64,000 nt of DNA from Planctomycetota bacterium (GCA_965248445.1 CBDFJG010000001.1:558131-622130), one strand, 5' to 3'; positions 8,856 to 56,402 are shown, counted from the first letter of the stretch. Program-made: numbers and translations. The notes: generated from the sequence alone by a model not told the origin.

Positions 8856-8886
8856 GACTCACCTCCCCCCGACCAGTATGCCACCC

Positions 8887-17790: not shown

Positions 17791-17957
17791 CGCGGAGATT
17801 CAGGTGAGAGGTCTGGGCCGAGAGGGGTTCATGCACCAACGCCACCCGGCAGCGGGTCGCGTAACTGGGCGACACTCTGGATCTCCTGCTCGGCATGGGC
17901 GGTCTCCTTGGAGAGTCGAATCTGCGGCGTGCGGTCCGCCGAAGCAAGGAAGGGTTC

Positions 17958-20120: not shown

Positions 20121-20267
20121 CGCAAAAACCGAACTCATCGAACGCACGAGCTTCCCGACGAAGTCCGCGGGTTCGGCTTCGAGTTGCTCGCGGTCGCCGT
20201 GCGTCTTGTACTCGCGCACACCCCGCATCAGTGCCTGCGCGATGTCGAGTCCGGCCTCACCGAAGCA
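20120..20267 (-). pseudogene. Short remnant of an IS110-family transposase
   Basis: Minus-strand translation GYACFGEAGLDIAQALMRGVREYKTHGDREQLEAEPADFV parallels the IS110 copy at 24057-24842; abuts the IS1595 end. Confidence 0.3.
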
Positions 20268-22270: not shown

Positions 22271-22394
22271 CCTCGGGACCATCGAGATCGGGACACCCGC
22301 GCGGACGGGTCCTGCGGATACCGAGATGGGATGAGATCCCGTCTTCTCGACCAAGGTTCTTAGAGCGTTGTTGGCGCTGCCCGCCTCGCCTGCG

Positions 22395-24837: not shown

Positions 24838-25878
24838 CATGCATATCCGGTTGACGACCGTGACCCCAAGGGGTAGTGTCTCGGACGCATGCCGAAGCCG
24901 GGCTACCCTCGCAACATCGTGGAGTTCACGGAGCAGTTCGCGACGGAAGAGCAGTGCCTCGAGTACCTCGTGCAGTGTCGTTGGCCCGACGGGTTCCGCT
25001 GCCGCCGGTGCGGCGGCAAGAAGTACTGGCCCCGTCCAGATCGAAGAGCGATGCGGTGCGTGGGCTGCGACCTGATCACGTCGGTCACCGCGGGCACAGT
25101 GCTGCATCGCAGCCGGCTGCCGCTGAAGTCCTGGATGTGGGCCGCGTACTTGATGACGACGGACAAGCGGGGCGTCTCTGCGCTCGCACTCCAGCGACAG
25201 CTCGGTCTGACCCGCTACGAGACCGCGTACCAGATGCTCCAGAAACTGCGATCTGCGATGGTCGCGCCGGAGCGCGCGCAGTTGTTCGGCGTCGTCGAGG
25301 TCGACGAGGCGCTGATCGGAGCGCCGTTTCGAGGCCGAGAGGAGCGCACCGCGGCAGACAAGGCCGTCGTGGTCGGCGCGGTCGAGGTGCGTCCGACGAA
25401 GAGAGGCACACAGCCCGGACGCATCCGGCTGCGCCACGTGCCGGCCTCATCGAAGCCGCACCTGCTGGCGTTCGTCAAGGACAGCATCGAGCGTGGGGCG
25501 CTCGTCGTGACCGACGGCCACGAGACCTACGACGCAGTCGAGAAACTCGGCTACGAGCACGGGATCGAGTCCACGATGATGGGCGCGGCGCAGGCGGACG
25601 TCCTGAGGCACCTGCACCTGGTCTTCTCCAACCTCAAGACCTGGCTCGTAGGCACGCACCACGGCCGGGTCTCGAAGAAGCACCTGCAGCGGTATCTCGA
25701 CGAGTTCACGTTCCGGTTCAACAGGAGACGCACGCCGCAGGCAGCGTTCCAGACGGTCCTCGGCATCGCGGCGAAGACGCCGCCGCACGTACGAACAGGT
25801 CTACGCCGACGAGCCTGCAAGCCCGCTGCCCTTCTAGCACAAGATGTAGTGGGCGCGGTCATTAACCGGATATGCATG
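24838..25878 (+). mobile_element. IS1595-family element, full-length copy with 8-bp target-site duplication
   Basis: 22-bp imperfect terminal repeats CATGCATATCCGGTTGACGACC / GGTCATTAACCGGATATGCATG; direct repeat CTCCAAAG at 24830-24837 and 25879-25886. Confidence 0.85.
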
Positions 25879-25908
25879 CTCCAAAGTCCTGGACCACGCG
25901 ATCCCTGA
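24889..25908 (+). CDS. IS1595 family transposase (C-terminus frameshifted relative to the truncated copy)
   Basis: N-terminal zinc-ribbon CRWPDGFRCRRCGG...CVGCD; DDE-type core; a 2-bp difference near 25786 gives a different C-terminal tail that reads through the terminal repeat. Confidence 0.8.
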   Translation: MPKPGYPRNIVEFTEQFATEEQCLEYLVQCRWPDGFRCRRCGGKKYWPRPDRRAMRCVGCDLITSVTAGTVLHRSRLPLKSWMWAAYLMTTDKRGVSALALQRQLGLTRYETAYQMLQKLRSAMVAPERAQLFGVVEVDEALIGAPFRGREERTAADKAVVVGAVEVRPTKRGTQPGRIRLRHVPASSKPHLLAFVKDSIERGALVVTDGHETYDAVEKLGYEHGIESTMMGAAQADVLRHLHLVFSNLKTWLVGTHHGRVSKKHLQRYLDEFTFRFNRRRTPQAAFQTVLGIAAKTPPHVRTGLRRRACKPAALLAQDVVGAVINRICMLQSPGPRDP

Positions 25909-26630
25909 GTCTGACGAGCTCGCGCAGTTCCTCGGTGCCGGAGTCGGGCAGCCGCGTGGGCTCCGGGCGTTTCTGGCGAGCGAACCGGGCGAGCCCGAGG
26001 GCGTCGATGGCATCGGTCTTGGTCCGCTGCAGGTCCTCGCCGGCGAAGCGGTGGGTCCGCAGCGGATTGATCAGCACCATGGCGAAACCGCGCGAGAGAA
26101 GCTCCGCCGCCAAGTTGCGCCAGTAGTGCCCGGTCGCCTCCAAGGCCACGAGCACGTCTCGAGGGACGCCGAGCAACTCGAAGAGCTCCTCGTAGCCCTG
26201 TGCGTCCTCACCGAAGGCGGTGGGCCGCACCAGGATCTCTTCGTCCTCGTCCATCACCGCCACGACGTGCTTCTTCGAAGCGATGTCTATCCCCGCGTAG
26301 CGCATCGTGCACCTCCTGTCATGCGACGAGGAGGACCGGGAGCCTCGGAGCCGGCGACCGTACTCATCCTTGTTCATGCGAGGACGCGCGTCTGCGCGCC
26401 TCAGGATCCCGTCCGAGCGTGGGTCGCCGGTCGAGGGCGCCAATCTCATCTCCGAGGACTGCGCCTCGTGAAGGCCGCGGCGACCCTCTCCCGGCTCTCG
26501 TCGATCTCTGTCCACCGTAGGTCGCGGGCATGAGTGGACGTCATACAAGAAGGCCGGTCCCTGCCTCGGTGTAACCCGTAGCGGTTTCCAGAGGCGCTGA
26601 CGGGCTTGCGAGCCCGAGGAGGAACCGGCT

Positions 26631-27674
26631 ATGGCAAAGGCTACACGTTTCGTGATCGGGATGGACCTGGGCGACCGCGTGGTGCCTGTGTGTGTGCTGG
26701 ACCGCAAGACGGGCGAGATCGTGGGCGAAGGGCGCGTCGCGACGACGCGTGCTCGCCTGACGGAGTTCCTCGGCGAGATCGAGCGCTCGAAGGTGGTGAT
26801 GGAGAGCGGGACGCACTCGCCGTGGATCAGCCGCCTCGCCGAGGGTCTTGGTCACGACGTCATCGTGGCCGATGCGCGTCGGCTGCGCGCGGTGTGGGAC
26901 TCGCCCAAGAAGAGTGACCGCCGCGACGCGCTGGTTCTGGCGCAACTGGGGGCCGGGCACCCAGGGCTCCTTCATCCGGTGTCTCACCGGAGCGAGCGCG
27001 CACAGACCCACATGGTCGTGCTCCGAGCGCGCGAGCGTGTGGTCGACGCGCGTACGAAGTTGGTCAATGCCGCGCGGGGCTCGGTGAAGTCGCTCGGGTA
27101 CCGATTGCCCGCTTGCTCCGCTCCGAGCTTCCATCGCAAGGCACGCGAGGCGGTGCCGGAAACCCTCGTGGACGCCCTGGCCCCGTTGTTCGACGCGATC
27201 GCAGCGTTGACGGAGAGCATCGCGCGCTACGACCGCGAAGTCGAGCGTCTCGGCCGCGACGCGTATCCGGTGACACGACGCCTTCGCGAGGTACCCGGCT
27301 GCGGTCCCGTCACCGCGCTCGCCTACGTGCTCGTCGTCCACGACCCAGAGCGCTTCTCGCGCAATCGCGACGTGGGCGCGTACGTCGGTCTCGTCCCGCG
27401 CCAGGACCAGTCGGGCAAGATCGATCGCCAACTCAGGATCACGAAGTGCGGCGACCGGATGCTCCGCCGGCTGCTCGTGCAGTGCGCGCACTACGTGCTC
27501 GGACCACACGGGCCCGACAGCGACCTGAGACGCTGGGGTCTGGAGCTGGCGCAACGGGGCGGGAAGAACGCGAAGAAACGGGCGACCGTCGCGGTCGCCC
27601 GCAAGCTCGCCGTGCTCTTCCACGCTCTGTGGATGAAGGACCGCGCGTACGAGCCGCTCGCTCGAGCGGCGTGA
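26631..27674 (+). CDS. IS110 family transposase (second, different member)
   Basis: 347 aa; N-terminal RFVIGMDLGDR DEDD-type domain; C-terminal LREVPGCGPVTALAYV helix-hairpin-helix region typical of IS110/IS1111. Confidence 0.85.
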   Translation: MAKATRFVIGMDLGDRVVPVCVLDRKTGEIVGEGRVATTRARLTEFLGEIERSKVVMESGTHSPWISRLAEGLGHDVIVADARRLRAVWDSPKKSDRRDALVLAQLGAGHPGLLHPVSHRSERAQTHMVVLRARERVVDARTKLVNAARGSVKSLGYRLPACSAPSFHRKAREAVPETLVDALAPLFDAIAALTESIARYDREVERLGRDAYPVTRRLREVPGCGPVTALAYVLVVHDPERFSRNRDVGAYVGLVPRQDQSGKIDRQLRITKCGDRMLRRLLVQCAHYVLGPHGPDSDLRRWGLELAQRGGKNAKKRATVAVARKLAVLFHALWMKDRAYEPLARAA

Positions 27675-27971
27675 TGACCGACTGAACACCACGAACAACA
27701 CGGGAGTCTGATCGACCGAGCAACGCGCCCACCCGGGCGATGCCCATCTCCCAACTCGAAGGCGCGACGACTGCGGTGGCTGAACGGGCCCGGCCCCGGC
27801 CGAGGCCGCGTAACTGATGGCAGCGTCGCCCTCGAGCGGATGCCTCAACGTGCACCGGGTCCAAACGACCCCCTGACGAGTGCGGATGGATGCGTGCAGA
27901 GGGAGCCGGCATCGGCTGCGGTGGACGGATCGCCAAGTCGATCCGACGCCTTGACACAAGAGGCCTTCTCA

Positions 27972-29502
27972 TGGACGTTCAGCCATTGTGTCTGAGCCCG
28001 TATCCAGATCTCCGAGCGGGTTGACGATGAACACCATGTGGGCAAGGACGACCTCCGCGAGTTGATCGAGCGGCAGTCGCGGCGTCTCGCTGCCCAGGAC
28101 GAGAAGATCGCTGAGCAGCAGCGTGTCATCGAGGGGCAGCAGGAGGAGATCGCAGATCTTCGGAACCGCCTGAAGCGGGATTCGCGCAACTCGTCGCGGC
28201 CGCCGTCCTCGGACGCGCCGTGGTCCAAGCGTCGGCGCCGGCGAAAGCCCCCGTCGGACAAGAAGCAGGGCGGCCAGCTGGGTCACGAGGGCAGGACGCG
28301 GCGGCTGGTGGACGAGGACGAGGTCGATGACGTCGAGGACCACCGCCCGAGCGAGTGCTCGAGCTGCGGGGGCAAGGAGCTCGAGCCGCTGGCGCGTCGT
28401 CCGCACCGCCACCAGGTGTGGGAGATCCCGCGGGTGCTGGTCCCGGTGACCGAGCATCGTCTTCACCGTGCGCGCTGCCGGGAGTGCGGCGAGGTGGTGG
28501 CGGCGGCGTTGCCCGAGGGCGTCACCAAGAGCGCCTTGGGCCCGCGGCTGAGCGCGCTTGCGGCATCCTTGAGCGGCGTCTACCGCGTGAGCCGCCGCGA
28601 GGTCTCCCGGCTTCTCTCGGAGGTCTTCGGTGTGACGATGTCGCCCGGCACCGTGAGCGCCATCGAGGGACGGCTCGGTGAAGGGCTCTCGCTGCCGCAC
28701 ATCCAGGCGCTTGGCGCGGTGCGCACGAGCTCGGTGGCCAACGTGGACGAGACGCCGTGGAGCGAACGTGGCGAGCTGCGCTGGCTCTGGACCGCGGTGG
28801 CCGAAGGCGTTACCGCGCACCGCATCGACTCCCGCCGCAACGCGGCCGCGATGAAGCGCCTGATCGGCCGGCGCTATCGCGGGGTGCTGGTGACCGACCG
28901 CATGGGCGCCTACGACAAGCACCCGCTCAAGAGGCGCCAGCTCTGCTGGGCCCACTTGGAGCGCGACTTCCGCGCTCTCGCCGAAGGGCCGCGGGGCGGA
29001 TGGGTCTTCGGCAAGAAGGGCGTCGAGATCGCGGGGGCCGTGATGCGAGTGCACCGCGGCTTCCGCGGCCACGGCGACCGCACCCGGCTCGCGCGCCAGC
29101 TCCGCGATCCCAAGCGCCGGCTCCGCCGCCTGCTCGAACGCGGGGCACGCGCCAAGCACTGTCCGGTCAGGGGCATGTCCAAGCACCTGCTGGCGCGCTT
29201 CGATGCGCTCTTCACCTTCGCCGAGGTCCCCGACGTCGACCCTACGAACAACGCCGCCGAACGCGCGGTCCGCAAGCCGGTGCTCTGGCGCAAGGGCTGC
29301 TACGGCAGCCAGTCCGCTCGCGGCGAACGCTTCGTCGAGCGAGTGCTCACGGCCACCGCGACGCTGCGCCGCCGGGGGGGCAAGTCTTCGACTTCCTCGC
29401 CGACTCGCTCGCCGCGCACGTCTCCGGCGCCGACCCACCCGTCCTCGTCAGCCTGCCGATCCCGCGCTGAGGATCAGGGCCCCCGAAGGGCTGAACGGGT
29501 AC
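27972..29502 (+). mobile_element. IS66-family element (type C) with degenerate left end
   Basis: Right terminal repeat GAAGGGCTGAACGGGTAC at 29485-29502; left end only partially matches (ACGTTCAGCC near 27972); boundaries approximate. Confidence 0.55.
28038..29470 (+). pseudogene. IS66 family transposase with frameshift in a G-homopolymer
   Basis: Protein matches IS66 transposases until a 7-G run at 29374-29380; the expected C-terminus (GGQVFDFLADSLAAHVSGADPPVLVSLPIPR) continues in the +1 frame (ORF 28757..29470). Confidence 0.8.
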
Positions 29503-29931
29503 GTCGAGGTCGCCCGCAATGCGATCACCGGCACTCCGGCTCCTCGGCTCGTCCCTCAGGCCGCCTCGGCCTGAGGCTGGATACCCACGTGAACGGGTAC
29601 TCGCGCTCTACCGGAGACTCCAGGTGACTCGCCCGTTCTCTGCCCCCTGTTCCAGTATGACGACCGACATCAATGGCGACTTCAGTCGGACGTCTCGACT
29701 GTCCACAATCTCACCGCCCGCGATCGTCTGTGACACCGTCTCCTTGTCCAGCGTGTTGAAGTAGACGGTCAACCGCGAACCAGCCGGTTCGGGAGCGTCA
29801 TTCCGTACGACGACCGCCCGTCCTCGTCGAGGGAGGTTCGGGGTCGATCTGATCCAGATCCGGAACGTCTTCGCGCGCGACAGCGCTGAGGTGGTCGTGA
29901 TGTCGCGGGCGGTGTCGGGCGTTCCATCCAC

Positions 29932-31463
29932 GTACCCGTTCAGGGTATGACGATCCGCGGCCTCAGCGCGTGATCGGGAGCGCGACGAGAGCCGGCGGCG
30001 AGCGGTTGTGCGCGAGTGCCGCGCTGACGTCTGCGAGGTAATCGAAGACGCTCTCGCCACGCTGGCGGAGCGTGGCGGTGACGGTCAGGATGCGCTCGAC
30101 GAAGCGGAGTCCGCGCTCGCTCTGACTTCCGTGCGTTGCGCGTCTCCACAGGACCGGCTTGCGCACCGCGCGCTCAGCGGCGTTGTTCGTCGGGGAGACG
30201 CCAGGGACGTCGGCGAAGGTCCACAGAGCCTCCGCTCGGTCGAGCAGATGCCGAGTCGTTCCGCGTACTCGGCGGTGCTTGCTGTCTGCGCCGCGCACGA
30301 GCAGCGTCAGGAGTCGGTCCCATGTGAGACGCAGCTCACGCCGCATGCGGTCGCGGTCCCCGTGCTCGCCGAAGTGACGCTGAGCTCGCATGACAGCCTG
30401 GGCGAGACGCACGGCCTGCTTGCCGAAGCGCCGGCCGCCGCGCGAGCCCTCGGCCAGCGCTCGAAAGTCCCTCTCGAGATGCGCCCAGCAGATCTGGCGG
30501 CGCTCGGTGGGATGCTGGTCGTAAGCGCCCATACGGTCGGTCACGAGGACGCCCCTGAAGCGCTTGCCCACGAGTCGCCGCATGGCCTTGGCGCTCCTGC
30601 GCCGATCGATACGATGGACCGTGGCGTGCTCACAGACCGCGCTCCACAGCCAATGCAGCGTGCCACGACGCGACCACGGTGTCTCGTCTACATAGGCGAC
30701 GCTGCTCGTGCGTACGGCCCCGAGGGCCTCGATGTGCGCTGAGGAGATGGCTCCCGACACCCGCTCCTCGATCGCACTGACCGTGCCCGGTGACATCGAG
30801 ACGCCGATGACGTCACGCAACAGACGACTGGTCTCGCGCCGCGACAGGCGGAAGACGCCGACCAGAGCCGCGGTGAGCGCACAGAGTCGCGGGCCGAAGG
30901 GACTCGCCGTCACACCGCTTGGCAGCGAGGCAGTGGACGTGGCGCCACAGTCCGTGCACCGTGCCCGGTGCAACCGGTGCTCGGTCACCTGGATCAGCCG
31001 TGGCGGGACCTCGAAGACCTGCTGGCGTGTCGGGGCGCGATCGATCGGGACGAGCACGTCGCTCCCACACGCGCTGCACTCGCGCGGGCGGTGGTCCTCT
31101 ACGCCATCGACCTCGGACTCGTCCACGAGCTTGCGCGTCGCCCCTTTGTGGCCGGGCTGCGCACCCTGGCGCTTGTCCGACGGCGGCTTGCGCCGCCGCC
31201 GCTTCTTGGACCACGACGGATCCGAGGACGGTGGGCGCGAGGAGGTGCGGGAGTCCCGGCGAAGACGGCTCTCGAGATCGTCGATCCGTGCCGCCTGCCG
31301 CTCGATCACCTCCGCCTGCTCGGCAATCGTCTCGTCCCGAGCGTCCAGACGACGGGTCAGGCGCTCGACCAGATCACGCAGCTCATCGGTGCCCACATCC
31401 GATTCATCGACCGAACGGAAAGCGATCTGGATCCGAGCTCAGAACCAAGGGCTGAACGGGTAC
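29932..31463 (-). mobile_element. IS66-family element (type B), copy 2, no target-site duplication
   Basis: Same terminal repeats and same internal ORF set as copy 1; flanks CCATCCAC and ACGCGCGC do not match; right end abuts a truncated IS1380 transposase. Confidence 0.85.
29963..31396 (-). CDS. IS66 family transposase
   Basis: 477 aa, identical to ORF 22426..23859. Confidence 0.9.
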   Translation of the reverse strand: MGTDELRDLVERLTRRLDARDETIAEQAEVIERQAARIDDLESRLRRDSRTSSRPPSSDPSWSKKRRRRKPPSDKRQGAQPGHKGATRKLVDESEVDGVEDHRPRECSACGSDVLVPIDRAPTRQQVFEVPPRLIQVTEHRLHRARCTDCGATSTASLPSGVTASPFGPRLCALTAALVGVFRLSRRETSRLLRDVIGVSMSPGTVSAIEERVSGAISSAHIEALGAVRTSSVAYVDETPWSRRGTLHWLWSAVCEHATVHRIDRRRSAKAMRRLVGKRFRGVLVTDRMGAYDQHPTERRQICWAHLERDFRALAEGSRGGRRFGKQAVRLAQAVMRAQRHFGEHGDRDRMRRELRLTWDRLLTLLVRGADSKHRRVRGTTRHLLDRAEALWTFADVPGVSPTNNAAERAVRKPVLWRRATHGSQSERGLRFVERILTVTATLRQRGESVFDYLADVSAALAHNRSPPALVALPITR

Positions 31464-40527: not shown

Positions 40528-41537
40528 AGACGCACCTCGACAAGATCGCTTCCTGCACCATCAACGCGAAGCTCGACCGCGAGGTCGAGGTCAGCGACCA
40601 GCTCGCGCCGGAACTCGGGCGGGTGGTCGTCGTGCGCGCATTGCGCGAGAAGACCGTCTACGACAAGGTCGAGCTGGTCAGCGGCCGCATGGCGAAGATC
40701 AGCAAGGACGACGTGATCGCGGGTGTGCTCGGCCGGCGTCGCGCGTTGCGCGGCTTCGTCGGTGACATCCCGGACGAGATCCGCGTCGGCGACCGGGTGC
40801 ACATCCTGAACATCGGCGGCGTCGTCGGCGTCGTCGTATCGGGCAACCTCGACCTCGGACAGCCGCTGCTCTGCGAGGTCGTGGGCGCGGTCATGCACAA
40901 CGGCGAACCGGCCAGCATCTCGAAGGGCATCCCGCCTCCGCCGGACACGCTCGGTGACGTGCCACTGATCCTCGTCGAAGGCACGTGCATGAACTCGGGC
41001 AAGACTTACGCGGCTGCAACGCTCATCCAGAAGCTGACGCAGCGGGGCTACCGGCTGAACGGCGCGAAGTTGACGGGCGTCGCGTGCATGCGCGACCAGC
41101 TCAACATGGAGGACCACGGAGCCGTGCGCACGAAGAGCTTCCTCGACGTGGGGCTGCCCTCGACCGTCGGCGTCGACGACGTCGCGGGCGTGGCGCGAAC
41201 CCTCCTCGCGGACCTCGCGAGCGACAAGCCCGACGCGATCATCGCCGAACTCGGCGACGGCATCATCGGCTACTACGGCTGCGACAAGATCCTGGCCGAC
41301 CCGGAGATCCGCAGGGCGACCAAGGCGCACGTCATGTGCGCCAACGACCTCGTCGGCGCGTGGGGCGCGGTCGAGGTCATGCGCAAGTGGGGTCTCGAGA
41401 TCGACGTGCTGACCGGACCGGCGACGGACAACGACGTGGGCGAGGGCTACGCGAAGCAGGAACTGCGGCTGCCGGCAGCGAACGCACGGCTCAACCCGCA
41501 CAAGCTCGCCGACCTGGTCGAAGGCCTGGTGTTCTGA
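40524..41537 (+). CDS. P-loop-containing protein of unknown function embedded in the arginine operon (possibly DUF1611/DgcN-like)
   Basis: 337 aa; ATGA overlap with argG stop and TGATG overlap with argC start; Walker-A-like GTCMNSGKT. Family assignment is from recollection and unverified. Confidence 0.55.
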   Translation: MKTHLDKIASCTINAKLDREVEVSDQLAPELGRVVVVRALREKTVYDKVELVSGRMAKISKDDVIAGVLGRRRALRGFVGDIPDEIRVGDRVHILNIGGVVGVVVSGNLDLGQPLLCEVVGAVMHNGEPASISKGIPPPPDTLGDVPLILVEGTCMNSGKTYAAATLIQKLTQRGYRLNGAKLTGVACMRDQLNMEDHGAVRTKSFLDVGLPSTVGVDDVAGVARTLLADLASDKPDAIIAELGDGIIGYYGCDKILADPEIRRATKAHVMCANDLVGAWGAVEVMRKWGLEIDVLTGPATDNDVGEGYAKQELRLPAANARLNPHKLADLVEGLVF

Positions 41538-42604
41538 TGATCGCGACGGCCGGACCGTCGACGCGATTCAAGATCGCCATCGCCGGTGCCAGCGGCTACG
41601 GCGGCGCGGAGATGCTCCGCTGGATCGCGGTGCACCCCAATCTCGAGGCGTGCGCGGTGACGTCGCGCCGCAACCAGGGGCGCGCCGTGCCGGAGGTGCA
41701 CCCGAATCTGGCCGGCTTCCACGACGACCTGAACTTCGTCGGTAACGTCGACGACATGCTCGCGACGGAGCCGCAGGCAGTCGTGCTCGCCGTGCCGCAC
41801 AAGACCGCTGCCGACATGGCGCTGAAGGTGCAGACGGCACTCCCGGACGTCCCGATCGTGGATCTGTCCGGCGACCATCGCCTGGACGACCCGGACTCGT
41901 ATCGCGCGCACTACGGCGTGACGCACCCCCACCCCGGCGCACTGACGTCCGGCGAGTGGGTGTACGGGTTGAGCGAGGCAAACCGCGATCGCATCTGCAA
42001 CGCGCGTCTCATCGCCAACCCCGGCTGCTACGCGACCGGCGCGGCACTCGCCGCGCTGCCGCTCTCGGAAGAAGGGCTGATCGCCGGACCGGTGCGGCAC
42101 GTGGCGATCACCGGCTCGTCCGGCGGGGGCGTCGAAGCAAGACGCGGAACTCACCATCCCGAACGGGTCGAGAACGTGCGCGCATACAAGGTGCTGGCGC
42201 ATCAGCACGTGCCCGAAATCGTGCGGTGCCTGCGCGAACACGGGATGGGCGACCACGCGTGGCACATGGTCCCGCAGTCCGGTCCGTTCGCCCGCGGCAT
42301 CCTGACGACGCTGTTCGTCGAGCTCACGCGAGAGATGACGGGCGACGAGTTGCGCGGCATCTACGACGGCGCGTTCGAGAACGAGCCTTTCGTGCGCATG
42401 CGCGACGGCTCGCCGCAGATCGCCCACGTGCACGGCACGAACTTCTGCGACATCGCCGTGCACGTGGATGGCAAACAGGCAGTCGTGCTGTCGGCGATCG
42501 ACAACCTCGGCAAGGGCATGGCCGGACAGGCCGTGCAGAACCTGAATCTCCTCCTCGGCCTGAACGAGGCCGCTGGCATCGCGGTGCCCGGGAGCCGGCC
42601 GTGA
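41537..42604 (+). CDS. argC: N-acetyl-gamma-glutamyl-phosphate reductase
   Basis: N-terminal Rossmann IAIAGASGYGGAEMLR; catalytic-Cys region LIANPGCYATG. Confidence 0.9.
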   Translation: MIATAGPSTRFKIAIAGASGYGGAEMLRWIAVHPNLEACAVTSRRNQGRAVPEVHPNLAGFHDDLNFVGNVDDMLATEPQAVVLAVPHKTAADMALKVQTALPDVPIVDLSGDHRLDDPDSYRAHYGVTHPHPGALTSGEWVYGLSEANRDRICNARLIANPGCYATGAALAALPLSEEGLIAGPVRHVAITGSSGGGVEARRGTHHPERVENVRAYKVLAHQHVPEIVRCLREHGMGDHAWHMVPQSGPFARGILTTLFVELTREMTGDELRGIYDGAFENEPFVRMRDGSPQIAHVHGTNFCDIAVHVDGKQAVVLSAIDNLGKGMAGQAVQNLNLLLGLNEAAGIAVPGSRP

Positions 42605-43767
42605 CCGAGGATATCCGCGACGCCGAGGCGCGGTACGGCATCCCGACGTACTCGCAGCTCCCGCTCACACTGGTGCGCGGCGAGGGCTGCTACGTCTGGG
42701 ACAGCGACGGCAACCGACACCTCGATCTCTACGGCGGGCACGCGGTTGCGCTGACCGGGCATTGCCACCCGCGCGTCGTGGCGGCGATCCGAGAGCAGGC
42801 AGGCAAGCTGCTCTTCTACAGCAACGCCGTGTCGAGCGACGTGCGTGCACGCGCACTCGAAGACCTGGCAGCGACGGCGCCCGAAGACGGCTTCCGCGTG
42901 TTCCTCTGTAACTCGGGGACAGAGGCGAACGAAGCCGCCATCAAGCTGGCGCGAAAGACGACCGGACGCCGTGAGGTCCTCTCGATGGAGGGCGGTTTCC
43001 ACGGCCGCACGATGGGATCGCTGTCGGCGACACACCTCGGCCACTACCTCGCGGACTACGCCCCCGGAGTGCCGGGACACCGGTTCATCCCGTTCGGCGA
43101 CCTCGACGCCGCAAGCGCCGCGATCAGCAGCGAGACCGCTTCGGTCATGCTCGAGCCGATCCAGAGCATGGCGGGGATGCAGACCGCCACGGACGAGTAC
43201 CTGCGCGCGCTCCGCGCGCGGTGCGACGAACACGGTGCGCTGCTGCACTTCGACGAGGTGCAGACGGGGCCGGCGCGGACCGGAACCTGGTGGTACGGCG
43301 ATCACGGCGGGGTCGTGCCGGATCTCATCAGCACGGCCAAGGGCCTGGCGAGCGGCGTACCCGCGGGTGCGGTGCTCGCGCGGGCGAACGTCGCCGAGGC
43401 GGTTCGGCACGGCGACCAGGGCACGACGTTCGGCGGCGGGATGCTCGCGTGCGCGGCGATCTCGGCAACGCTCGCCGTCGTGCGCGACGAGGGCCTGCTC
43501 GAGAACGCGACCCGGCGCGGCGCCGAGATCACAGAAGGCGTCTCGGCGCTCGCGGGCGTCACGGACGTGCGCGGACGCGGCATGCTGTTAGGGATCGCGC
43601 TCGATCGGCCGGCCAAGCCCGTCGTCGCGGCGCTACGCGATCGAAGGATCCTGACCGGCACGACGGTCGGCGATGCGCACGTCCTGCGCATCCTGTCCCC
43701 CATCACACTCGGCGACGCTCAGGTGGCGACGTTCATCACACAGCTGGGCGAGGTGCTCGATGCGTAA
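42601..43767 (+). CDS. argD: Acetylornithine (class III) aminotransferase
   Basis: GTG start overlapping the argC stop; CNSGTEANEAAIKLARK; PLP-lysine region DLISTAKGLASG; FDEVQTG. Confidence 0.85.
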   Translation: MTEDIRDAEARYGIPTYSQLPLTLVRGEGCYVWDSDGNRHLDLYGGHAVALTGHCHPRVVAAIREQAGKLLFYSNAVSSDVRARALEDLAATAPEDGFRVFLCNSGTEANEAAIKLARKTTGRREVLSMEGGFHGRTMGSLSATHLGHYLADYAPGVPGHRFIPFGDLDAASAAISSETASVMLEPIQSMAGMQTATDEYLRALRARCDEHGALLHFDEVQTGPARTGTWWYGDHGGVVPDLISTAKGLASGVPAGAVLARANVAEAVRHGDQGTTFGGGMLACAAISATLAVVRDEGLLENATRRGAEITEGVSALAGVTDVRGRGMLLGIALDRPAKPVVAALRDRRILTGTTVGDAHVLRILSPITLGDAQVATFITQLGEVLDA

Positions 43768-44761
43768 CCTGCTCTCGCTGGCGGACCTGCCGGGCAGGGA
43801 ACTGGAAACCCTCCTCGCAGAGGCCGCGCGCATCGCGCGTGACGGCCCGGATCCCACGGCCCTGCGCGGCAAGCGCGTCGCTCTGCTCTTCCTCAACCCA
43901 TCGCTGCGCACGCGCACGTCGATGGAACTCGCCGCCAAGACGCAGGGGGCGCACTCCGTCACGCTCGTGCCCGGCGCCGACGCTTGGAAGGTGGAGCTCG
44001 AACGCGGCGCGGTCATGAATGGAGAGGCTGCGGAGCACATGGTGGACGCGATCCGCGTGCTCTCGCGCATGTGCGACGGGATCGGCGTCCGCACGTTCGC
44101 TGGATTGCGCGACGCCGACGAGGACCGGCAGGAGCGCGTGCTCTCTCTCATCGCGGAGGAGAGCACCGTTCCCGTCGTGAACATGGAGTCGGCTTTGGAT
44201 CACCCGCTCCAGGCGCTGGCCGACCTGCAGACGCTGCAGGAGGAACTGGGTGATCTGCGCGGTGCGCCGGTCGCGCTGACGTGGGCGCCTCATCCGAAGG
44301 CGCTGCCGATGGCGGCGGCCGCCGCTTTCCTGCGCGGTGCCGCGCGCGTGGGCGCGGACGTCCGCGTCGCCGCCCCCGAGGGGTTCGCGCTGCCGGACGA
44401 ACTCGTGGAGGAGGCGCGCACGCTGCTTCCCGGCACCGGCAGCGTCTCCACCACGAACGACCAGCGAGCGGCCGTGCAAGGCGTGCGCGCCGTGTACGCC
44501 AAGGCCTGGGCGGCTCCGGCTCTCTACGCGGATGCGGCCGCCGGAAGCGCTGGACGCGATCGAAACGCCGCCTGGACCGTCACGGAGGGTCTGATGGCGG
44601 AGGGCGCCGACGCGGTGTTCCTCCACTGCCTCCCCGTGCGCCGCAACGTGGTCGTCACGGACGAGGTGCTGGACGGGCCGCGCAGCCGCGTGTACCGCGA
44701 AGCGGAGCACCGGTATCACACGGCTTGCGCCGTGCTGAGCCGCGTGCTGGGAGGCGCGTGA
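43760..44761 (+). CDS. Transcarbamylase of the N-acyl-ornithine type (ArgF-prime-like)
   Basis: Carbamoyl-phosphate motif region SLRTRTS, HCLP motif present, but the canonical ornithine-binding DxxxSMG segment is replaced (VYAKAWAAPALY). Confidence 0.7.
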   Translation: MRNLLSLADLPGRELETLLAEAARIARDGPDPTALRGKRVALLFLNPSLRTRTSMELAAKTQGAHSVTLVPGADAWKVELERGAVMNGEAAEHMVDAIRVLSRMCDGIGVRTFAGLRDADEDRQERVLSLIAEESTVPVVNMESALDHPLQALADLQTLQEELGDLRGAPVALTWAPHPKALPMAAAAAFLRGAARVGADVRVAAPEGFALPDELVEEARTLLPGTGSVSTTNDQRAAVQGVRAVYAKAWAAPALYADAAAGSAGRDRNAAWTVTEGLMAEGADAVFLHCLPVRRNVVVTDEVLDGPRSRVYREAEHRYHTACAVLSRVLGGA

Positions 44762-45672
44762 TGGACGACGTGAAGATCCTGATGCAGGCGCTGCCCTACA
44801 TCCGCGCGCACCGCGGGAAGACGTTCGTCGTCAAGTTCGGCGGCGCGGTCGTGGAGAACACGGAGGCCTTGGCCACTCTCGCAAAGGACGTGTCCCTGCT
44901 CACGAGCGTCGGCATCGACATCTGCATCGTCCACGGTGGCGGGCCGCAGGCGACGGCGATGTCCGAGAAGCTCGGCCTCGCGCCGAAGTTCGTCGAGGGT
45001 CGCCGCATCACGGACGCCGACACGCTCGAGATCGCGAAGATGGTCTTCGCGGGCAAGATCAACCTCGAGATCCTCGGCGCCCTGCGCGCGCAGGGCTTGA
45101 GTGCGGTCGGGCTCTCCGGGGTCTCCGGCGACCTCGTGCAGGCCGTCCGTCGCCAACCCACGGAGTATCGCGACGACGATACGGGCGAGAAGCGTGTGGT
45201 CGACATGGGCCACGTGGGCGACATCGAAAGTGTCGACACGTACCTGCTCCGAGAGCTGATGGACACGGGCCACGTACCGGTCGTGAGTTCGCTGGCCGCG
45301 GACGGTGACGGCAACTTCCTGAACATCAACGCCGACACGGTCGCGACGGCCATGGCGGTCGATCTCGCGGCCGACAAGTTCCTGCTGATGACCAACGTCG
45401 ACGGCATCCTCCGCGACAAGGACGACCCGTCGTCCCTCGTCGCGACCGTGACCGCCGCCGAGGCGGAGAAGCTGATCGAGGACGGTGTGATCGCCAGGGG
45501 CATGATCCCGAAGGTCAACAACGCCCTCGACGCGCTGCGCGGCGGCGTGGATCGCGTGCACATCCTGAACGGCGAGCGTCCGCACACGCTCCTGACCGAG
45601 CTGCTCACGAAGCGCGGCAACGGCACCTTGCTCACGCTGGAAGAACAGCCGCCGGGGTACCTCATCGGATGA
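44761..45672 (+). CDS. argB: Acetylglutamate kinase
   Basis: FVVKFGGAV, IVHGGGPQ, amino-acid-kinase family pattern; ATGA overlap with the upstream stop. Confidence 0.9.
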   Translation: MDDVKILMQALPYIRAHRGKTFVVKFGGAVVENTEALATLAKDVSLLTSVGIDICIVHGGGPQATAMSEKLGLAPKFVEGRRITDADTLEIAKMVFAGKINLEILGALRAQGLSAVGLSGVSGDLVQAVRRQPTEYRDDDTGEKRVVDMGHVGDIESVDTYLLRELMDTGHVPVVSSLAADGDGNFLNINADTVATAMAVDLAADKFLLMTNVDGILRDKDDPSSLVATVTAAEAEKLIEDGVIARGMIPKVNNALDALRGGVDRVHILNGERPHTLLTELLTKRGNGTLLTLEEQPPGYLIG

Positions 45673-46757
45673 GCACGCCGGTGTTCACCGCGGACGACCC
45701 GGTCGACCTGACCGTGCGCCTGGTCGAGACGCCGTCGGTCTCCGGCGGTGAGTCGGCGGTCGTCGGCCTGATCGCCGAGGGGCTGCGCGCCGCAGGACTG
45801 CGGCCGATCGTGACCGGCCGCAACGTGCATGCCGTCGTAGAGGGCAAGCGCCCTGGCCGCCACACGCTCCTGCTGCAGGGGCACATCGACACGGTGCCCG
45901 CTGGACAGGATTGGACCCGCGATCCGTGGCGCGCGTCGCGAGAGGACGGGCGGATCTACGGCCTCGGGTCCAACGACACGAAGGGCGGCGTCGCCGCGAT
46001 GATCTGCGCTTTCGCGGACCTCGCGAAGACGCGGGACTTCGGCGGGACGCTCGTGTTCGCTGCCACATGCGATGAGGAGACCGGCGGCGAGGGCCTCGAG
46101 ACACTGCGCCCCCACCTGCCGCCGCTGACCGGCGCGGTGATCGCTGAGCCGACGACGCTGCGAGTCTGCACGGCTCAGCGCGGGTTGATGCGAATCGTCG
46201 TCGCGTGCCACGGCCGTTCCGCGCACGCGTCGCGACCGTGGCAAGGCAGCAACGCGATCGAGTTGGCGCTGGCCGACATCGCGGCTCTCCGCGCGATCGA
46301 GGCGCCGGACGTGCACCCGCTGCTCGGACGCACGACCTGCACGCCCACCATGATCGAAGGCGGCGTCGGGTCCAACGTCGTCCCGCCGCTCTGCCGCTAC
46401 ACACTCGACGTGCGCCCCACGCCCAACTACCCGAACGCGTGGTGGGAGGAGCGCATCCGGGCCACGGTCCAGGGCGAGATCGAGGTGTTCCGGGGTCGCA
46501 TGGTGCCGGTGGAGACCGAGCCCGGAGACCGGCTCGTGCAGGCGGCACTCCTGGCGGCCGCCACCGGCGACGCGGCACCGTTCGGCGGCGTCAGCGATCT
46601 GTTCCACGTGCGCGACGTCGCCGGCGTCGTGCTCGGTCCAGGGCGCTCGGAGCAGAGCCACTCCCCCGACGAGTGGGTGGAGGAAGAACAGGTGCGTGCG
46701 GCGGTCGCCGTGTACCGCGACCTTGTGCTGAGTTACCTGACGGGAGAGGCCGCATGA
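45669..46757 (+). CDS. argE: M20-family deacylase (acetylornithine or acetylcitrulline deacetylase-like)
   Basis: LLLQGHIDTVPAG metal-binding His/Asp region, GSNDTKGG, M20 dimerisation region; ATGA overlaps on both sides. Confidence 0.75.
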   Translation: MSTPVFTADDPVDLTVRLVETPSVSGGESAVVGLIAEGLRAAGLRPIVTGRNVHAVVEGKRPGRHTLLLQGHIDTVPAGQDWTRDPWRASREDGRIYGLGSNDTKGGVAAMICAFADLAKTRDFGGTLVFAATCDEETGGEGLETLRPHLPPLTGAVIAEPTTLRVCTAQRGLMRIVVACHGRSAHASRPWQGSNAIELALADIAALRAIEAPDVHPLLGRTTCTPTMIEGGVGSNVVPPLCRYTLDVRPTPNYPNAWWEERIRATVQGEIEVFRGRMVPVETEPGDRLVQAALLAAATGDAAPFGGVSDLFHVRDVAGVVLGPGRSEQSHSPDEWVEEEQVRAAVAVYRDLVLSYLTGEAA

Positions 46758-48172
46758 CCAAACGCAAGAACCCCGCGACATCGCGCACATCCAAGCGGGG
46801 CCTGTGGGGCGCACGGTTCGACGGCGGACCGTCGGCCGCGATGCGCGCGATCGGGGACTCGCTGCACGTCGATCAGCGTCTCGTGGACCAGGACCTCCGC
46901 GGGTCGATCGCTCACGCGCGCATGCTCGGAGACCAGGGCATCCTACGGAAGGCCGACGCACGGAAGATCGTGAGCGAGCTCGGCAAGATGCGACGCGAGA
47001 TCGCGCGCGGGGAACTCGTCGTGGAGGGCGCCGACGAGGACGTCCACTCCTGGATCGAACGCGTCCTGACGGAGCGGATCGGCGACGACGGCGCACGGCT
47101 GCACACGGCCCGAAGCCGCAACGATCAGGTTGCCACGGCGTTCCGCCTCTTCCTGCGGGACGGGACCGCGGAGGTCAACGACGCTCTGCGCGCACTGCAG
47201 TCGTCTCTGGTCGCGCGGGCGGCCGAGATGATCGGCGTCATCGTGCCGGCGTACACGCACCTCCAGCGGGGCCAACCTGTGCTTCTGTCGCACCAGTTCC
47301 TGGCCTACGTGGAGATGCTCGAGCGCGACCGCGGACGGTTCCTCGACCAGGCGCGCCGCATGAACGAGTGCCCGCTCGGCGCGGGCGCGGCAACCGGCGT
47401 GCCGTATCCCATCGACCGCGCCGCGACGGCGAAGGAACTCCTGTTCGATCGGCCGACAGCCAACTCCATGGACAGCGTGGCGGATCGCGACTTCGCTGCG
47501 GAGTGGCTGGCCGCAGCGGCAATCCTCGCCGTGCATCTCTCGCGGCTGGCCGAGGACATCTGCCTATGGGCGTCGTCCGAGTTCGGGCTTCTCTCGCTCG
47601 GCGACGCGGTCTCGACGGGCTCGTCGATCATGCCTCAGAAGCGCAACCCCGACGGCGCGGAGCTTGTGCGCGGGAAGGCCGGTCGCGTGATCGGCTCGCT
47701 GGTGTCCCTTCTGACGACCCTCAAGGCGCTGCCGCTGACGTACAACCGCGACCTGCAGGAGGACAAGGAGGTCGTGTTCGACGCGCTCGACACGTCCCTC
47801 GTGTGCCTGCGCATGCTGGACGACACGCTCGCAGAGAGCCGCTTCGTGCCGGAGGCGGCCGCGCGGCTGCTCGAGGGCGGACACCTGCTGGCGACGGAAC
47901 TGGCGGACTTCCTCGTCGGGAAGGGCGTCCCGTTCCGACTCGCGCACGAGGCGGTCGGCGAGGTTGTGAAGGAGTGCGACGACCGAGGCGTCGACCTCTC
48001 CGAGCTGTCGGAGGAGGACCTGGTCGCGCTGCACCCGCGCTTCGCGGACTGCGCAGAGACACTCGACTTCGCCAGCGCCGTGGATCGGCGCGACCACCTC
48101 GGGGGCACGGCGACGAAGCGCGTACGCGCTGCCATCCGCAAGTGGGTGCGCCGCCTCGCGCCGCGGAGGTAG
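46754..48172 (+). CDS. argH: Argininosuccinate lyase
   Basis: Fumarate-lyase signature GSSIMPQKRNPD; 472 aa from ATG at 46754 (the ORF track extends an N-terminal artefact from 46205). Confidence 0.9.
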   Translation: MTKRKNPATSRTSKRGLWGARFDGGPSAAMRAIGDSLHVDQRLVDQDLRGSIAHARMLGDQGILRKADARKIVSELGKMRREIARGELVVEGADEDVHSWIERVLTERIGDDGARLHTARSRNDQVATAFRLFLRDGTAEVNDALRALQSSLVARAAEMIGVIVPAYTHLQRGQPVLLSHQFLAYVEMLERDRGRFLDQARRMNECPLGAGAATGVPYPIDRAATAKELLFDRPTANSMDSVADRDFAAEWLAAAAILAVHLSRLAEDICLWASSEFGLLSLGDAVSTGSSIMPQKRNPDGAELVRGKAGRVIGSLVSLLTTLKALPLTYNRDLQEDKEVVFDALDTSLVCLRMLDDTLAESRFVPEAAARLLEGGHLLATELADFLVGKGVPFRLAHEAVGEVVKECDDRGVDLSELSEEDLVALHPRFADCAETLDFASAVDRRDHLGGTATKRVRAAIRKWVRRLAPRR

Positions 48173-48181
48173 TCGATCCGG

Positions 48182-48760
48182 ATGGAACTCGACGACGCCG
48201 TCGTGCGCAACGCTTTGCGCCCCGCCACCGGAGACTGGCGATCGTCGAACGACCTGAAGGACGCCGCCGTACTTCTGCCGTTGCTGCGTCGGGACGGCGC
48301 CGATCACCTGCTCTTCACGCTGCGCCGCGCGGACCTGCCCGACCACCCAGGCCAGGTTGCGTTCCCCGGCGGGTCACGCGACGCGGGCGAGGATGTCGTG
48401 ACGTGCGCCCTGCGCGAGACCGAGGAGGAGGTCGGGCTCCCGGCCGACCTGCTGACGCCGCTCGGCCGCCTGCCGGAGCGCGTCTCGATCGCGGGCTTTC
48501 TCGTCGCGCCGGTCGTTGCGCGGCTCACACGTGAGCATCCGCCCGTGCCGGATCTGCGCGAGGTCGAGGACGTCTTCGACGTCCCACTCTCCGCACTCCT
48601 CGACAAGAGCCTCTGGCGTTTCGAGTCGCTCTCGACACCTCGGGGCAACTTCAACCACATCCCGTACTTCGACGGCGGACGCCACACTGTCTGGGGACTG
48701 ACCGCCGTGATCGCCCGCGACTTCCTGCGCAGCGTGCTGGAGTTCGATCCGGGCCCGTGA
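48182..48760 (+). CDS. NUDIX hydrolase (CoA-pyrophosphatase-like)
   Basis: Nudix box GGSRDAGEDVVTCALRETEEEVGL. Confidence 0.75.
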   Translation: MELDDAVVRNALRPATGDWRSSNDLKDAAVLLPLLRRDGADHLLFTLRRADLPDHPGQVAFPGGSRDAGEDVVTCALRETEEEVGLPADLLTPLGRLPERVSIAGFLVAPVVARLTREHPPVPDLREVEDVFDVPLSALLDKSLWRFESLSTPRGNFNHIPYFDGGRHTVWGLTAVIARDFLRSVLEFDPGP

Positions 48761-50127
48761 CCGACTCGACGTTCGAGTTGACGTCCTTCGTGCAGGCAAC
48801 GCCGCAGACAGTGTTCGACTGGCATGCACGACCGGGTGCGCTCGAACGCCTCGCTCCGCCGTGGGAGCGCGTCGAATTCCTGCAGAAGGCTCCGCTCAGC
48901 GTCGGCAGCCAGGTGGTGCTCCGCGTGTCGGCACCCTGGCCCCGCAGGTGGGTGATTGAGCACATCGAGGTGCAACCGGGCAGGTCCTTCCGCGACGTGT
49001 AGGTGACTGGGCCCTTCGGGAAGTTCGACCACCAGCACCTCTTTGCAGCCCAAGCGGTGGGTTGCCTGTACTCGGACCGTATCGTCTACCAGTTGCCACT
49101 CGGGCGGCTGGGTCACGCCGTGGGGAGCGGCGTGTTGCGCGCGAAGCTCGCGCGGTCATTCGCGTATAGGCATCGGACAGTGTGCGGCGATCTCGCCGCC
49201 CGACGTGCGTTGCCATCGGAGCAGACCATGTTGATCGCGATCACTGGCGCCGGCGGGCTCGTCGGGCGCGCCCTGGTACCGTTCTTGACCACCGGCGGGG
49301 ACGAGGTCGTGCGGCTCGTCCGCCGCGACCCGAGTTCCGAGGACGAGGTCGCGTGGAGCCCCGCCGACGGGACCGTCGACACGCGCGGTCTGCGCGGCGT
49401 GGACGCCGTCGTGCACCTGGCCGGCGAGGGCATCGCCGACGGGCGCTGGAACGCCGCCAAGAAGGAGCGCATCCGCGCCAGCCGCGTGGACGGCACGGCA
49501 GCCATCGCGAAGGCCATCGCCTCGATGGACGAGCCCCCGCGCGTGCTCGTGTGCGCGTCTGCCATCGGGTTCTACGGCGACCGCGGCGACGAAGAACTGA
49601 CCGAGGACAGCGCCGCCGGGACAGGGTTCCTCCCGGAGGTCTGCCAGGCCTGGGAAGACGCTGCCGCTCCCGCCAGGGAAGCGGGAATCCGCGTCGTGAA
49701 TCTGCGCATCGGCATCGTGCTGTCCGCGCGCGGCGGCGCCCTCCACAAGATGCTGACGCCCTTCAAGCTCGGTGCGGGCGGAGTGATCGGCAGCGGCGAC
49801 CAGTGGATGAGCTGGATCGCGATCGACGACGTGCTGGGAGCGATCCGTCACGCCATCGCACAGGAGCAGATGACGGGTCCGGTGAACGTCGTCGCACCGC
49901 AACCCGTGACGAACCGGACGTTCACGAAGACGCTCGGCCGCGTACTCCGGCGTCCCACCGTTCTCCCGCTCCCGGCGTTCGCCGTGCGGCTGGTGTTCGG
50001 ACAGATGGGCGAAGATCTGCTGATCGCCGGACAGCGGGTGCTGCCCCGTCGCCTGGCGGCCCACGGATACGCGCTCCAGTACACCGACCTCGAGACCGCC
50101 CTCCGCCATCAGCTCGGCAAGGGCTGA
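48757..50127 (+). CDS. SRPBCC-domain / TIGR01777-type NAD-dependent epimerase fusion, interrupted by an in-frame TAG at 49000-49002
   Basis: One continuous frame; the SRPBCC-like domain is split by the TAG; epimerase part has Rossmann IAITGAGGLVG and a DUF1731-like C-terminus. Confidence 0.6.
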
Positions 50128-53828: not shown

Positions 53829-55006
53829 TCAGCTGAGGCCGGAGAGCGCCTGATCGACGTCCGCCCAGACGTCCTCGACGTGCTCGATCCCGCACGAGAT
53901 ACGCAGGAGCCCGTCGCCGATCCCGAGCAGTTCGCGCTGCTCGGCGGTCAACGCGGCGTGAGACGACGTGGCGGGGTGCGCCACGGTCGTCGTCACGCCG
54001 CCCAGGCTGGGCGTGAACGTGAGCAGGCGCAGGGCCCGCACGAAGTCGTCGACGCGAGCCCGCGAACCCGTGTCGAACGCCACGAGCGCGCATGCGCCCG
54101 AGTGATGCACGGCCCCACCGCCGGGTGTTCGCGCAGGCGTGCGGCCAGTGTCGCCGCGTTCTGGCACCCGCGCTCCATGCGGAGTGCGAGCGTGCGCAGC
54201 CCGCGGTCGCAGAGCCACGCGTCGAACGGACTGGCCCGGCCGCCCAGGTGGACCGACTTCGTGCGCACACGGTCCATATCCGCTGTGGTGCCGCACACGA
54301 CACCGACCGTCACGTCGTGGTGTCCGCCGAGGAACTTGGTCCCCGAGTGCAAGACGATGTCTGCGCCCTCGGTGAGCGGGCGGGAGAGCATCGGCGTCGC
54401 GAACGTCCCATCTACGACGAGGCGGACGTCCGCATCTCCGCACGCAGCCGCTAGCGCGGCGACGTCCACGCGGCGGAGCAGGGGATTCGAGATGGACTCG
54501 ACGAGCAGCAGCTTCGGGTTGCCGCCGGCCGCCGCGCGGACGGCGTCCGTGTCGTACGCATCGACCGCAACGACATCGATGCCCAGCGGCCCGAGGTCGC
54601 CCTCTAACAGTCCCATCGTGCCGCCGTACGCGTCGGACTGGACAAGGACCGCGTCTCCGGAAGATGCGAAGGCCAGCACCGTCGCCGAGATCGCCGCGAG
54701 TCCGCTCGCCGTCGCCACGCCGTCCTCGGCCTCCTCGAGCGCCACCATGGACAGCTCGAGCGTGCGGCCGTTCGGGTGGCCGTACCGCGCGTACGCGTAT
54801 CCCTCGCGACCGGACAGTGGACGGAGCGACGCGGCCACGTCCTCGAAGTCGTACGCGGTGCTGACCTGCAGCGGCGGCCGGTGCGGGCGCGCGCGCAGGC
54901 CCGGGGGCTGCTGCTCGGGAGCAGGTGCGCGGGCGCCACGGGCCGCCTGCGTCTCCCTGCGCTGCACCGCTTCTCTGGGCGGCGCCGGCGGCTCCTTGTC
55001 ACTCAT
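53829..55006 (-). pseudogene. PLP-dependent trans-sulfuration family enzyme, disrupted by frameshift/indel
   Basis: N-terminal frame (53993..55006) carries the core up to ...[10 protein letters not shown]...EHPAV; the conserved C-terminus ([18 protein letters not shown]...[14 protein letters not shown]) is in another frame (53829..54443); ~18 residues expected between the two appear missing near 54090-54130. Confidence 0.6.
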
Positions 55007-55028: not shown

Positions 55029-56402
55029 TCAACGGGTTCGAAGTGGAGCGTGGAACTTCACGAAGAGCCGGCCGGCACGGGTCACGACCAACACCCGGCC
55101 CGCGAGGGCCTCCGGGGCACCTTCCGGCGGCAGCGTGACATCGCACTCGACCCAGACCGAGAGGCGTCGGCCTGCGCCCAGCGCGGTCCGCCTCGTGGGC
55201 TGTCCGATGCGCAGCCGCTCATCCGTGAACTCCAGCAGCGGAGACGCAACCAAGTCGGCCGTTCGCAACCCCTTCGCGAAGTGCAGACCAACGTGCAGAC
55301 GCACGAGGGCGCGTCCCGTGCTGTCGCCGACGATCACGGTCTCGACGGTGATGCGCTCCCCGGCGTTCTCGGACCCGGCGAAATCAAGCTCGCTACGCTC
55401 GACCGTCTTGCGCACGCGCGGATCGAGCAACTCCGCACCGGAGAGGCCCGTACGGAGGTCGAGCGGGTGCTCGTCGCGCGGCTGTATCGACCGCCGGGCT
55501 TCGCTGACCCACGGATAGAACGGGTACGGCTTGTCGAGCAACGGCCCGTACTGCTGGATGCGACGACGCCAGATGTACTGCTTCTTCCGGAGATCCAGGG
55601 CGCCGGACCAGGCGTCCACAGCCCGTTGGAAGTCCCCCGGCTGCGCACCGTTCGAGTCGTGGCGCATGCGATGCGCAACGCCCAGGCGGAACCGCGCGGC
55701 CGCGTCCTCGGAGTGCGTGTCGACGTACGCGCCGATCGTCTCAATCGCTCCGTCGCGAGCGTCCTCGGAGCCCCACAGCAGGGATGTCAGGGCCTCGAAG
55801 TACTTGCGATCGGGAGCCGTCCGAGCCATCCCGTCGAGCTCGATCAGACGACCCTTGGCGTGCGCGCCGTCGGCCGGCGGCAGGTCATCGGGGGCGTCGA
55901 ACGCGACGTCGAGGAACTCCTTCTCGATCGTCTCGAGCGTCGGCCGTTTGGAACGCACGACGCCGTGTTCGTCGACCAGCGTCAGGTTCGGCACGGCGGC
56001 AGCCCCCGTGACGTTCAGCGGATCCCACAGGATCGGCCAGTCGATCTCGTGCCACTGAGCGAACAGGCGCGCGCGGTCCCGGTGCTGTTCCTGCACGATG
56101 CCGATGACCGCGAGCTTCCCGCTCTTGCGCCACTTCTCGGTCGCGCGGTGCCACACGGGCACCTTCTTGCGGCAACCCGCTCACCAGGAGGCAAACTCGA
56201 TCAGGAGCAACTTCTTGCCGCGGTAGTCCGAGAGGCGGACCGTCTGCTCACCGTCGATCGTTGGCAATCGCACGTCGGGCAGGACCTCCCCGATCGCGGC
56301 CCGTGCCGGCTCTCGGTCGCCCGCGATCGCCACGGCGCTGAGCGTAACGACAAGCATTGTCGCGAGCCTGCGTGGACGCATCACAAGCCTGCGTGGACGC
56401 AT
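55029..56402 (-). CDS. Candidate selenoprotein: secreted TlpA/ResA-like thioredoxin-fold protein with in-frame TGA (Sec) at 56181-56183, plus ~300-aa C-terminal domain
   Basis: ORFs 56181..56402 and 55029..56162 share a frame and are separated only by the TGA; translation ...GKKLLLIEFASW-[TGA]-AGCRKKVPVW... puts the TGA at the first Cys of a thioredoxin CxxC motif; signal peptide present; hairpin 18 nt downstream. Confidence 0.6.
56147..56180 (-). promoter_or_regulatory. Candidate SECIS-like hairpin downstream of the in-frame UGA
   Basis: mRNA: UGA-GCGG-GUUG-CCGC-AAGAAG-GGUGCC-CGUGU-GGCACC; perfect 6-bp stem with 5-nt loop 18-34 nt after the UGA, preceded by a 4-bp minihairpin. Confidence 0.3.

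Follow-up and report, generated by a model that had tools for sequence, protein, structure and literature searches.

The 64,000-nucleotide stretch of Planctomycetota bacterium DNA analyzed here (GCA_965248445.1 CBDFJG010000001.1:558131-622130, hereafter the window) carries a string of arginine-biosynthesis genes (39286-48172), followed on the same strand by a NUDIX hydrolase gene and then by two open reading frames that share one frame (Table 1). The first of these, of 81 codons, starts at GTG 48757, which overlaps the TGA of the NUDIX gene (GTGA, 48757-48760), and the second, of 374 codons, ends at the TGA at 50125-50127. Between them stands an in-frame TAG (49000-49002, + strand) with the flanking peptide ...GRSFRDV*VTGPFGKFDHQHLF..., and nothing else separates the two frames, as an initial annotation of the window had pointed out. 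The joined translation is 456 aa long and comprises an SRPBCC domain, a TIGR01777 domain (YfcH/SDR39U1-type), and a DUF1731 domain.

The nine co-directional genes upstream are uninterrupted: argG, an ORF without a family, argC, argD, argF, argB, an M20 peptidase gene, argH, and the NUDIX gene. All but the ORF without a family give full-length profile matches, which speaks against pervasive errors in the local sequence. An ORF of ~337 aa (MKTHLDKIASCTINAKLDREVEV...), located at ~40520-41537 (+) between the argininosuccinate-synthase gene and argC, had no Pfam match. Other frames that adjoin across a TAG were considered as signs of genome-wide TAG reassignment or suppression, and this reading was rejected: argH and NUDIX lie in one frame across a TAG and are separate genes, and the same-frame pairs 38611-39126 with 39127-40527 and 6330-8858 with 4443-6329 are unrelated neighbors with their own starts.

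Elsewhere, the window contains an island rich in insertion sequences at ~15495-31500. Two copies of an IS66-family element are identical over their full length, which points to recent transposition, and the fact that a single contig resolves both suggests that long reads were assembled. Outside this island, an ORF at 8887-9450 (-) duplicates in its first ~95 residues the N-terminus of the adjacent 841-aa secreted repeat protein (6330-8855, -), whose repeats appear FG-GAP-like by eye, and then continues into unrelated sequence. We considered a frameshift in this ORF, but the homology continues in no other frame and the ORF looks like a partial tandem duplicate.

Table 1. Features of the window (positions counted from its first nucleotide)
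Feature	Position	Strand	Basis
NUDIX hydrolase gene, last before the interrupted gene	48182..48760	+	profile match
5′ piece, first half of the SRPBCC (polyketide-cyclase-like) domain, 81 codons	48757..48999	+	PF03364 partial match
TAG at the conserved Gln82 position, one C>T from CAG	49000..49002	+	homolog and ortholog comparison
3′ piece: second half of SRPBCC, linker, TIGR01777/YfcH-type Rossmann domain, DUF1731	49003..50127	+	profile matches
Shine-Dalgarno-like GGAG, 6 nt before the internal ATG	49218..49221	+	sequence
Internal-start ORF, 299 aa, MLIAITGAGG..., stand-alone epimerase-like domain	49228..50127	+	P0002, homologs
Frameshifted Cys/Met-metabolism PLP enzyme gene (PF01053)	53829-55006	-	profile in two frames
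IS66-family element, two direct copies, 1,532 bp, 100% identical; 491-aa transposase	22395-23926; 29932-31463		
Diverged IS66 transposase gene	27996-29627	+	
Diverged IS66 transposase gene	1975-3438	-	
IS4-like DDE_Tnp_1_4 transposase	15495-16922		
IS110	26601-27674		
IS1595	24877-25908		
IS110 remnant, C-terminal Transposase_20 domain only, abuts IS1595	24057-24902	-	

One gene interrupted at a conserved glutamine codon

The profile matches place the stop inside a domain. On the joined product, the SRPBCC-family profile PF03364 (gathering cut-off, 23.4 bits) matches residues 12-127 at 28.8 bits, covering profile positions 1-118 of 126 and crossing the TAG, in agreement with the initial assignment of the stop to an SRPBCC-like domain. 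The 81-aa piece alone reaches only profile positions 1-63 at 22 bits, under the cut-off. Since the cut-off is reached only by the joined translation, the two frames represent one gene and not chance same-frame neighbors.

The 3′ piece also matches Epimerase (PF01370, 65.9 bits) and DUF1731 (PF08338, 61.4 bits against a cut-off of 27). The NCBIfam model TIGR01777, which is of the type 'hypoth_equivalog', is matched over its full length (1-292 of 292) by residues 160-449 at 342.5 bits against a cut-off of 207.35, and the Rossmann glycine motif (TGxxGxxG) is present as ITGAGGLVG directly after Met158. The full-model score, this motif, and the C-terminal DUF1731 together place the protein in the TIGR01777 family. 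We also considered whether it is an ortholog of ThyD and rejected this assignment, as the ThyD model NF050030 scores 282.3 bits over residues 158-451, under its equivalog cut-off of 400 bits.

To identify homologs of the joined product, 5.8 billion proteins were searched and 8,000 candidates were scored, 7,964 of them at E ≤ 1e-20; nearly all of the 7,964 have the SRPBCC-TIGR01777 architecture. Apart from P0002, each of the 120 best listed hits is a single protein, 419-519 aa long, whose alignment takes in 91-100% of the joined query. The joined product aligns with its homologs end to end with no gap at the stop, and the N-terminus of the 5′ piece lines up with the N-termini of full-length homologs. 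The exception, P0002, is a 299-aa protein 100% identical to the window product that starts at ATG 49228, and it is the sole product of the interrupted gene in public protein collections. It is encoded on an NCBI/ENA contig of 654,057 bp and evidently represents the annotation of the source genome itself. The fused family is thus very common, and it has been structurally characterized: residues 7-441 of the PDB 3OH8 chain align to residues 10-454 of the joined product (E = 1.5e-84). The locus therefore has the coding potential for a fused protein along the extent of 3OH8 and of the 119 fused homologs, but with the TAG in place a single chain could be made only through readthrough or if the stop proves to be an error. 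The initial annotation had proposed one gene rather than two, and this is borne out by the 119 of 119 best homologs that are single polypeptides spanning the site and by the same fused architecture in 3OH8; no ortholog split at the TAG boundary was found among these 119.

The residue at the stop is strongly conserved. It is glutamine in all of the 31 best homologs in our alignment and in 114 of the 119 best homologs overall, with alanine in four and leucine in one, and the column is flanked by the invariant residues F78, D80, and G85-P86. We aligned the DNA directly to that of the three nearest orthologs, found in L082 (encoding P0001, 68% identity), L081 (P0081, 60%), and L083 (P0003, 61%), and all three read CAG at the site. 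In 26 more distant genomes examined by tblastn, the codon is CAA in 10 and CAG in nine; the other seven encode Leu, Thr, Ala, or Met there. The codon comparison that the initial annotation had called for can hence be refined to an ancestral CAG, and a single C>T transition explains the TAG.

Apart from the TAG, the gene is undamaged. All family-invariant residues are kept on both sides of the stop (W22, H23, G27, R31, L32, W65, H69, F78, D80, G85, P86, F87, H92, H94, D107, and others), and the joined product has no indels relative to the 31 aligned homologs. This retention indicates that the change is either very recent or present only in the assembly.

The L081 locus is syntenic with the window, with argF, argB, an M20 peptidase gene, argH, NUDIX, and the fusion gene in the same order and an argH 76% identical to that of the window. 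In these two loci, the fusion gene follows argH and NUDIX, not a B12-binding regulator. A gene for such a regulator directly precedes the TIGR01777 homolog in two other relatives, at L009 3060-4004 and L082 3-419. The L009 regulator combines MerR HTH and B12-binding domains (CarH/LitR-like) and precedes a stand-alone epimerase gene, and the L082 regulator gene, cut by the contig end with its B12-binding part visible, precedes the nearest fused ortholog, P0001. These neighbors hint at light- or cobalamin-dependent control of the TIGR01777 family.

Mutation or consensus error

We consider the leading explanation, to which we give about an even chance, to be that 48757-50127 is one fusion gene in which a real and recent nonsense mutation turned the CAG of Gln82 into TAG, leaving an epimerase half that can still be made from ATG 49228. 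A single C>T change would have arisen in the sequenced population, and translation from GTG 48757 would then end after 81 residues, that is, after half of the SRPBCC domain. Judging from the profile coordinates, this half of a helix-grip-type domain is unlikely to fold alone, and the ligand-binding SRPBCC half of the protein would be lost.

The main competitor, which we regard as a serious but somewhat less probable explanation, is that a base-call or consensus error went uncorrected at the TAG and that the organism has CAG and makes a normal 456-aa fusion. The otherwise perfect state of the gene, with its invariant residues kept and no indels, fits this explanation, as does the single transition from the codon found in all three nearest orthologs. 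The two identical 1,532-bp repeats resolved in one very long contig suggest a long-read assembly, which can carry residual errors. Furthermore, a PF01053 enzyme gene 5 kb away is frameshifted near a G homopolymer, and a frameshift at a homopolymer is a classic long-read consensus error. In this PLP enzyme gene, PF01053 is matched in two different frames, at positions 17-272 by the N-terminal part and at positions 293-380 by the C-terminal part; once the frames are joined near the G4 run at 54113-54116, the match extends over 17-380 of 381 positions and the score climbs from 250.6 to 331.9 bits. The gene may be a true pseudogene, or the frameshift may stem from a consensus error at the homopolymer; where exactly the indel lies is uncertain.

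Against an error in the TAG itself, stop-creating substitutions make up a small share of consensus errors, and no point disruption was found in the ~40 other ORFs checked against Pfam. Of the ORFs with a family match, most span essentially the whole profile; the truncated IS110 copy accounts for the one partial match. Within coding-like frames, the only in-frame stops are TAG 49000 and one TGA, a probable selenocysteine codon discussed below. The searched collections yielded no same-species sequence with which to decide between mutation and error: a scan of species-representative genomes returned no relative above 64% identity, and the exact DNA pattern across the TAG site had no match in metagenome contigs.

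On balance, we favor a real mutation over an error by a small margin, a ranking that draws on general rates of consensus error and of pseudogene formation rather than on rates measured for this assembly. The abundance of insertion sequences in the window and the second disrupted gene 5 kb away fit a genome that is gathering real lesions; they are equally compatible with error. We recommend annotating the locus as a single interrupted gene, a pseudogene, or a possible sequencing error, rather than as an 'intact' 299-aa oxidoreductase beside an orphan 81-aa ORF. The TAG and the frameshifted PLP enzyme gene 5 kb away additionally serve as a quality-control flag for the assembly.

Translation downstream of and past the stop

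Given a real nonsense mutation, the conserved internal ATG 49228, which we predict as a start from sequence features, could still yield the epimerase-like, NAD(P)-binding half. The initial annotation had suggested that the downstream part could reinitiate at GTG 49003. This is possible inasmuch as that codon abuts the stop, but no Shine-Dalgarno-like motif occurs in the ~20 nt upstream of it and the resulting protein would carry only half a domain at its N-terminus, so we set this start aside as less likely than the ATG. ATG 49228 appears the likelier downstream start because it has a GGAG 6 nt upstream, because its methionine (Met158) is conserved, being Met in 111 of 119 fused homologs, and because stand-alone members of the family start there, as does the TIGR01777 gene of L009 at its Met158 equivalent. 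A GGAG also lies 6-9 nt upstream of the equivalent ATG in L082 and L083, so that three of the four nearest fusion genes have one; L081 has GGAAGG further upstream. The methionine and GGAG at the domain junction may reflect a retained internal start, with two isoforms made, or merely the ancestral start of the gene that was fused.

Initiation at ATG 49228 would reduce the fusion to a stand-alone YfcH/SDR39U1-like form, which is natural in many other bacteria. A small amount of full-length wild-type protein might still arise through near-cognate reading of the UAG by tRNA-Gln. Should the mutation prove real, the gene would offer a natural example of a fusion reverting to a stand-alone catalytic domain, and the TIGR01777 half may be dispensable or separable from its SRPBCC partner.

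A further explanation, which we think improbable, is that the TAG is real and usefully read through by a near-cognate tRNA-Gln(CUG) or an amber-suppressor tRNA, giving both full-length and truncated products. A UAG read by near-cognate tRNA-Gln or by a supE-type suppressor receives Gln, and Gln is the conserved residue at the site. The lack of secondary damage in the SRPBCC half would likewise fit selection on a full-length product, but it is equally explained by a recent mutation or an error. The stop is shared by none of the homologs, neither the 119 best nor the three nearest, which read CAG. Moreover, TAG terminates other genes of the window normally: it ends argH where the homologs end (472 aa compared to 459-489 aa in the closest full-length homologs), and the TAGs at 39124-39126 and 6330-6332 are followed by separate genes.

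The surroundings of the stop are similarly unremarkable. The RNA of 48960-49080 folds no better than shuffled sequences (z = -0.27), Rfam has no match at the site, and scans for local repeats, promoters, and terminators found nothing notable there. The single tRNA gene in the 64-kb window is tRNA-Arg(ACG), and the window holds no suppressor tRNA. Programmed recoding would be marked by a stop conserved in orthologs and a stable RNA structure adjacent to it, and the locus has neither. Because TAG ends other genes normally, no homolog shares the stop, and the window provides neither an RNA structure nor a suppressor tRNA, we consider recoding at this TAG unlikely. Of the three options raised initially (mutation, sequencing error, and readthrough), readthrough is the least supported.

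A more elaborate version holds that the TAG is genuine, maintained, and partly decoded as Gln, producing a tunable mix of the full fusion and, from the conserved internal ATG and its GGAG, the free epimerase domain; in a milder form, prompted by the near-universal methionine and the GGAG ahead of it in several fusion genes, the whole family would normally make two isoforms. We regard this as highly speculative.

The reading of the locus as two separately functional genes, or of TAG as a sense codon through reassignment or pyrrolysine, is effectively refuted: its sole support is the possibility of drawing two ORFs that each have a start codon, while the split falls in the middle of a domain profile and at a point where 0 of 119 homologs are split, TAG terminates nine of the 38 long coding-like stop-to-stop frames, this is the sole internal TAG returned when the window was scanned for stops with coding-like GC3 to either side, and the orthologs have Gln rather than a Pyl-type context.

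Comparison with known systems

The closest structural counterpart of the joined product is PDB 3OH8, a 516-aa protein described as 'Nucleoside-diphosphate sugar epimerase (SulA family)' that has the same domain order and extent. At the column of Gln82, 3OH8 has Cys, closer homologs have Gln, and the window gene has TAG. The human protein SDR39U1 (PDB 4B4O, 298 aa), in contrast, stands alone and aligns to residues 160-450 only.

Stand-alone TIGR01777 oxidoreductases, among them E. coli YfcH, SDR39U1, and the product of the L009 gene, correspond one-to-one with the 299-aa ORF from ATG 49228. The L009 gene, from a Planctomycetota metagenome-assembled genome, is 64% identical over residues 158-455 and has no SRPBCC part. 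In these stand-alone genes, the short form is native and has its own start region, whereas the window copy is a remnant of a fusion gene. ThyD of Anabaena is, like the window protein, a member of the TIGR01777/DUF1731 family; ThyD (NCBIfam NF050030) has been described as a cyanobacterial thylakoid membrane protein (PMC11711299).

A second in-frame stop, 7 kb downstream, resembles the TAG in splitting one gene into two ORFs. This TGA (56181-56183, minus strand) lies within a gene for an AhpC/TSA-Redoxin protein with a C-terminal domain (55029-56402) and occupies the position of the first Cys of a CxxC motif (...LLLIEFASW*AGCRKKVPVWH..., that is, FASW-U-AGC). The same in-frame TGA is present in the complete genome of a Tautonia plasticadhaerens isolate (CP036426, L084), where the sequence reads FASW*AGCRTHVPVWH and is annotated as two ORFs. 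One full-length homolog has Cys at this position (P0326, FASWCAESR) and another has Ser. Downstream of the TGA, at a distance of 20 nt, is a GC-rich hairpin with a 6-bp stem (GGUGCC/GGCACC) and GU in its loop. From these sequence features, we suggest that the TGA is probably a selenocysteine codon and the product a selenoprotein. Most database homologs are annotated from the V/MPVWH just after the TGA, and this family looks systematically mis-annotated.

Selenocysteine recoding of this type, with UGA in a UxxC redox motif, differs from the situation at the TAG. Its hallmarks, namely a TGA at a CxxC Cys, a conserved stop, a homolog with Cys, and a hairpin, are found at TGA 56181, and none is found at TAG 49000. 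The TAG is instead the same in kind as ordinary nonsense pseudogenes and supE-suppressible ambers, which have a single CAG>TAG change at a conserved Gln in a gene that is otherwise intact. We conclude that the fusion gene was broken by a common type of single-base nonsense change, or only appears broken through an assembly error, and we see in it no new kind of genetic signal, no recoding, no split gene, and no change in the code.
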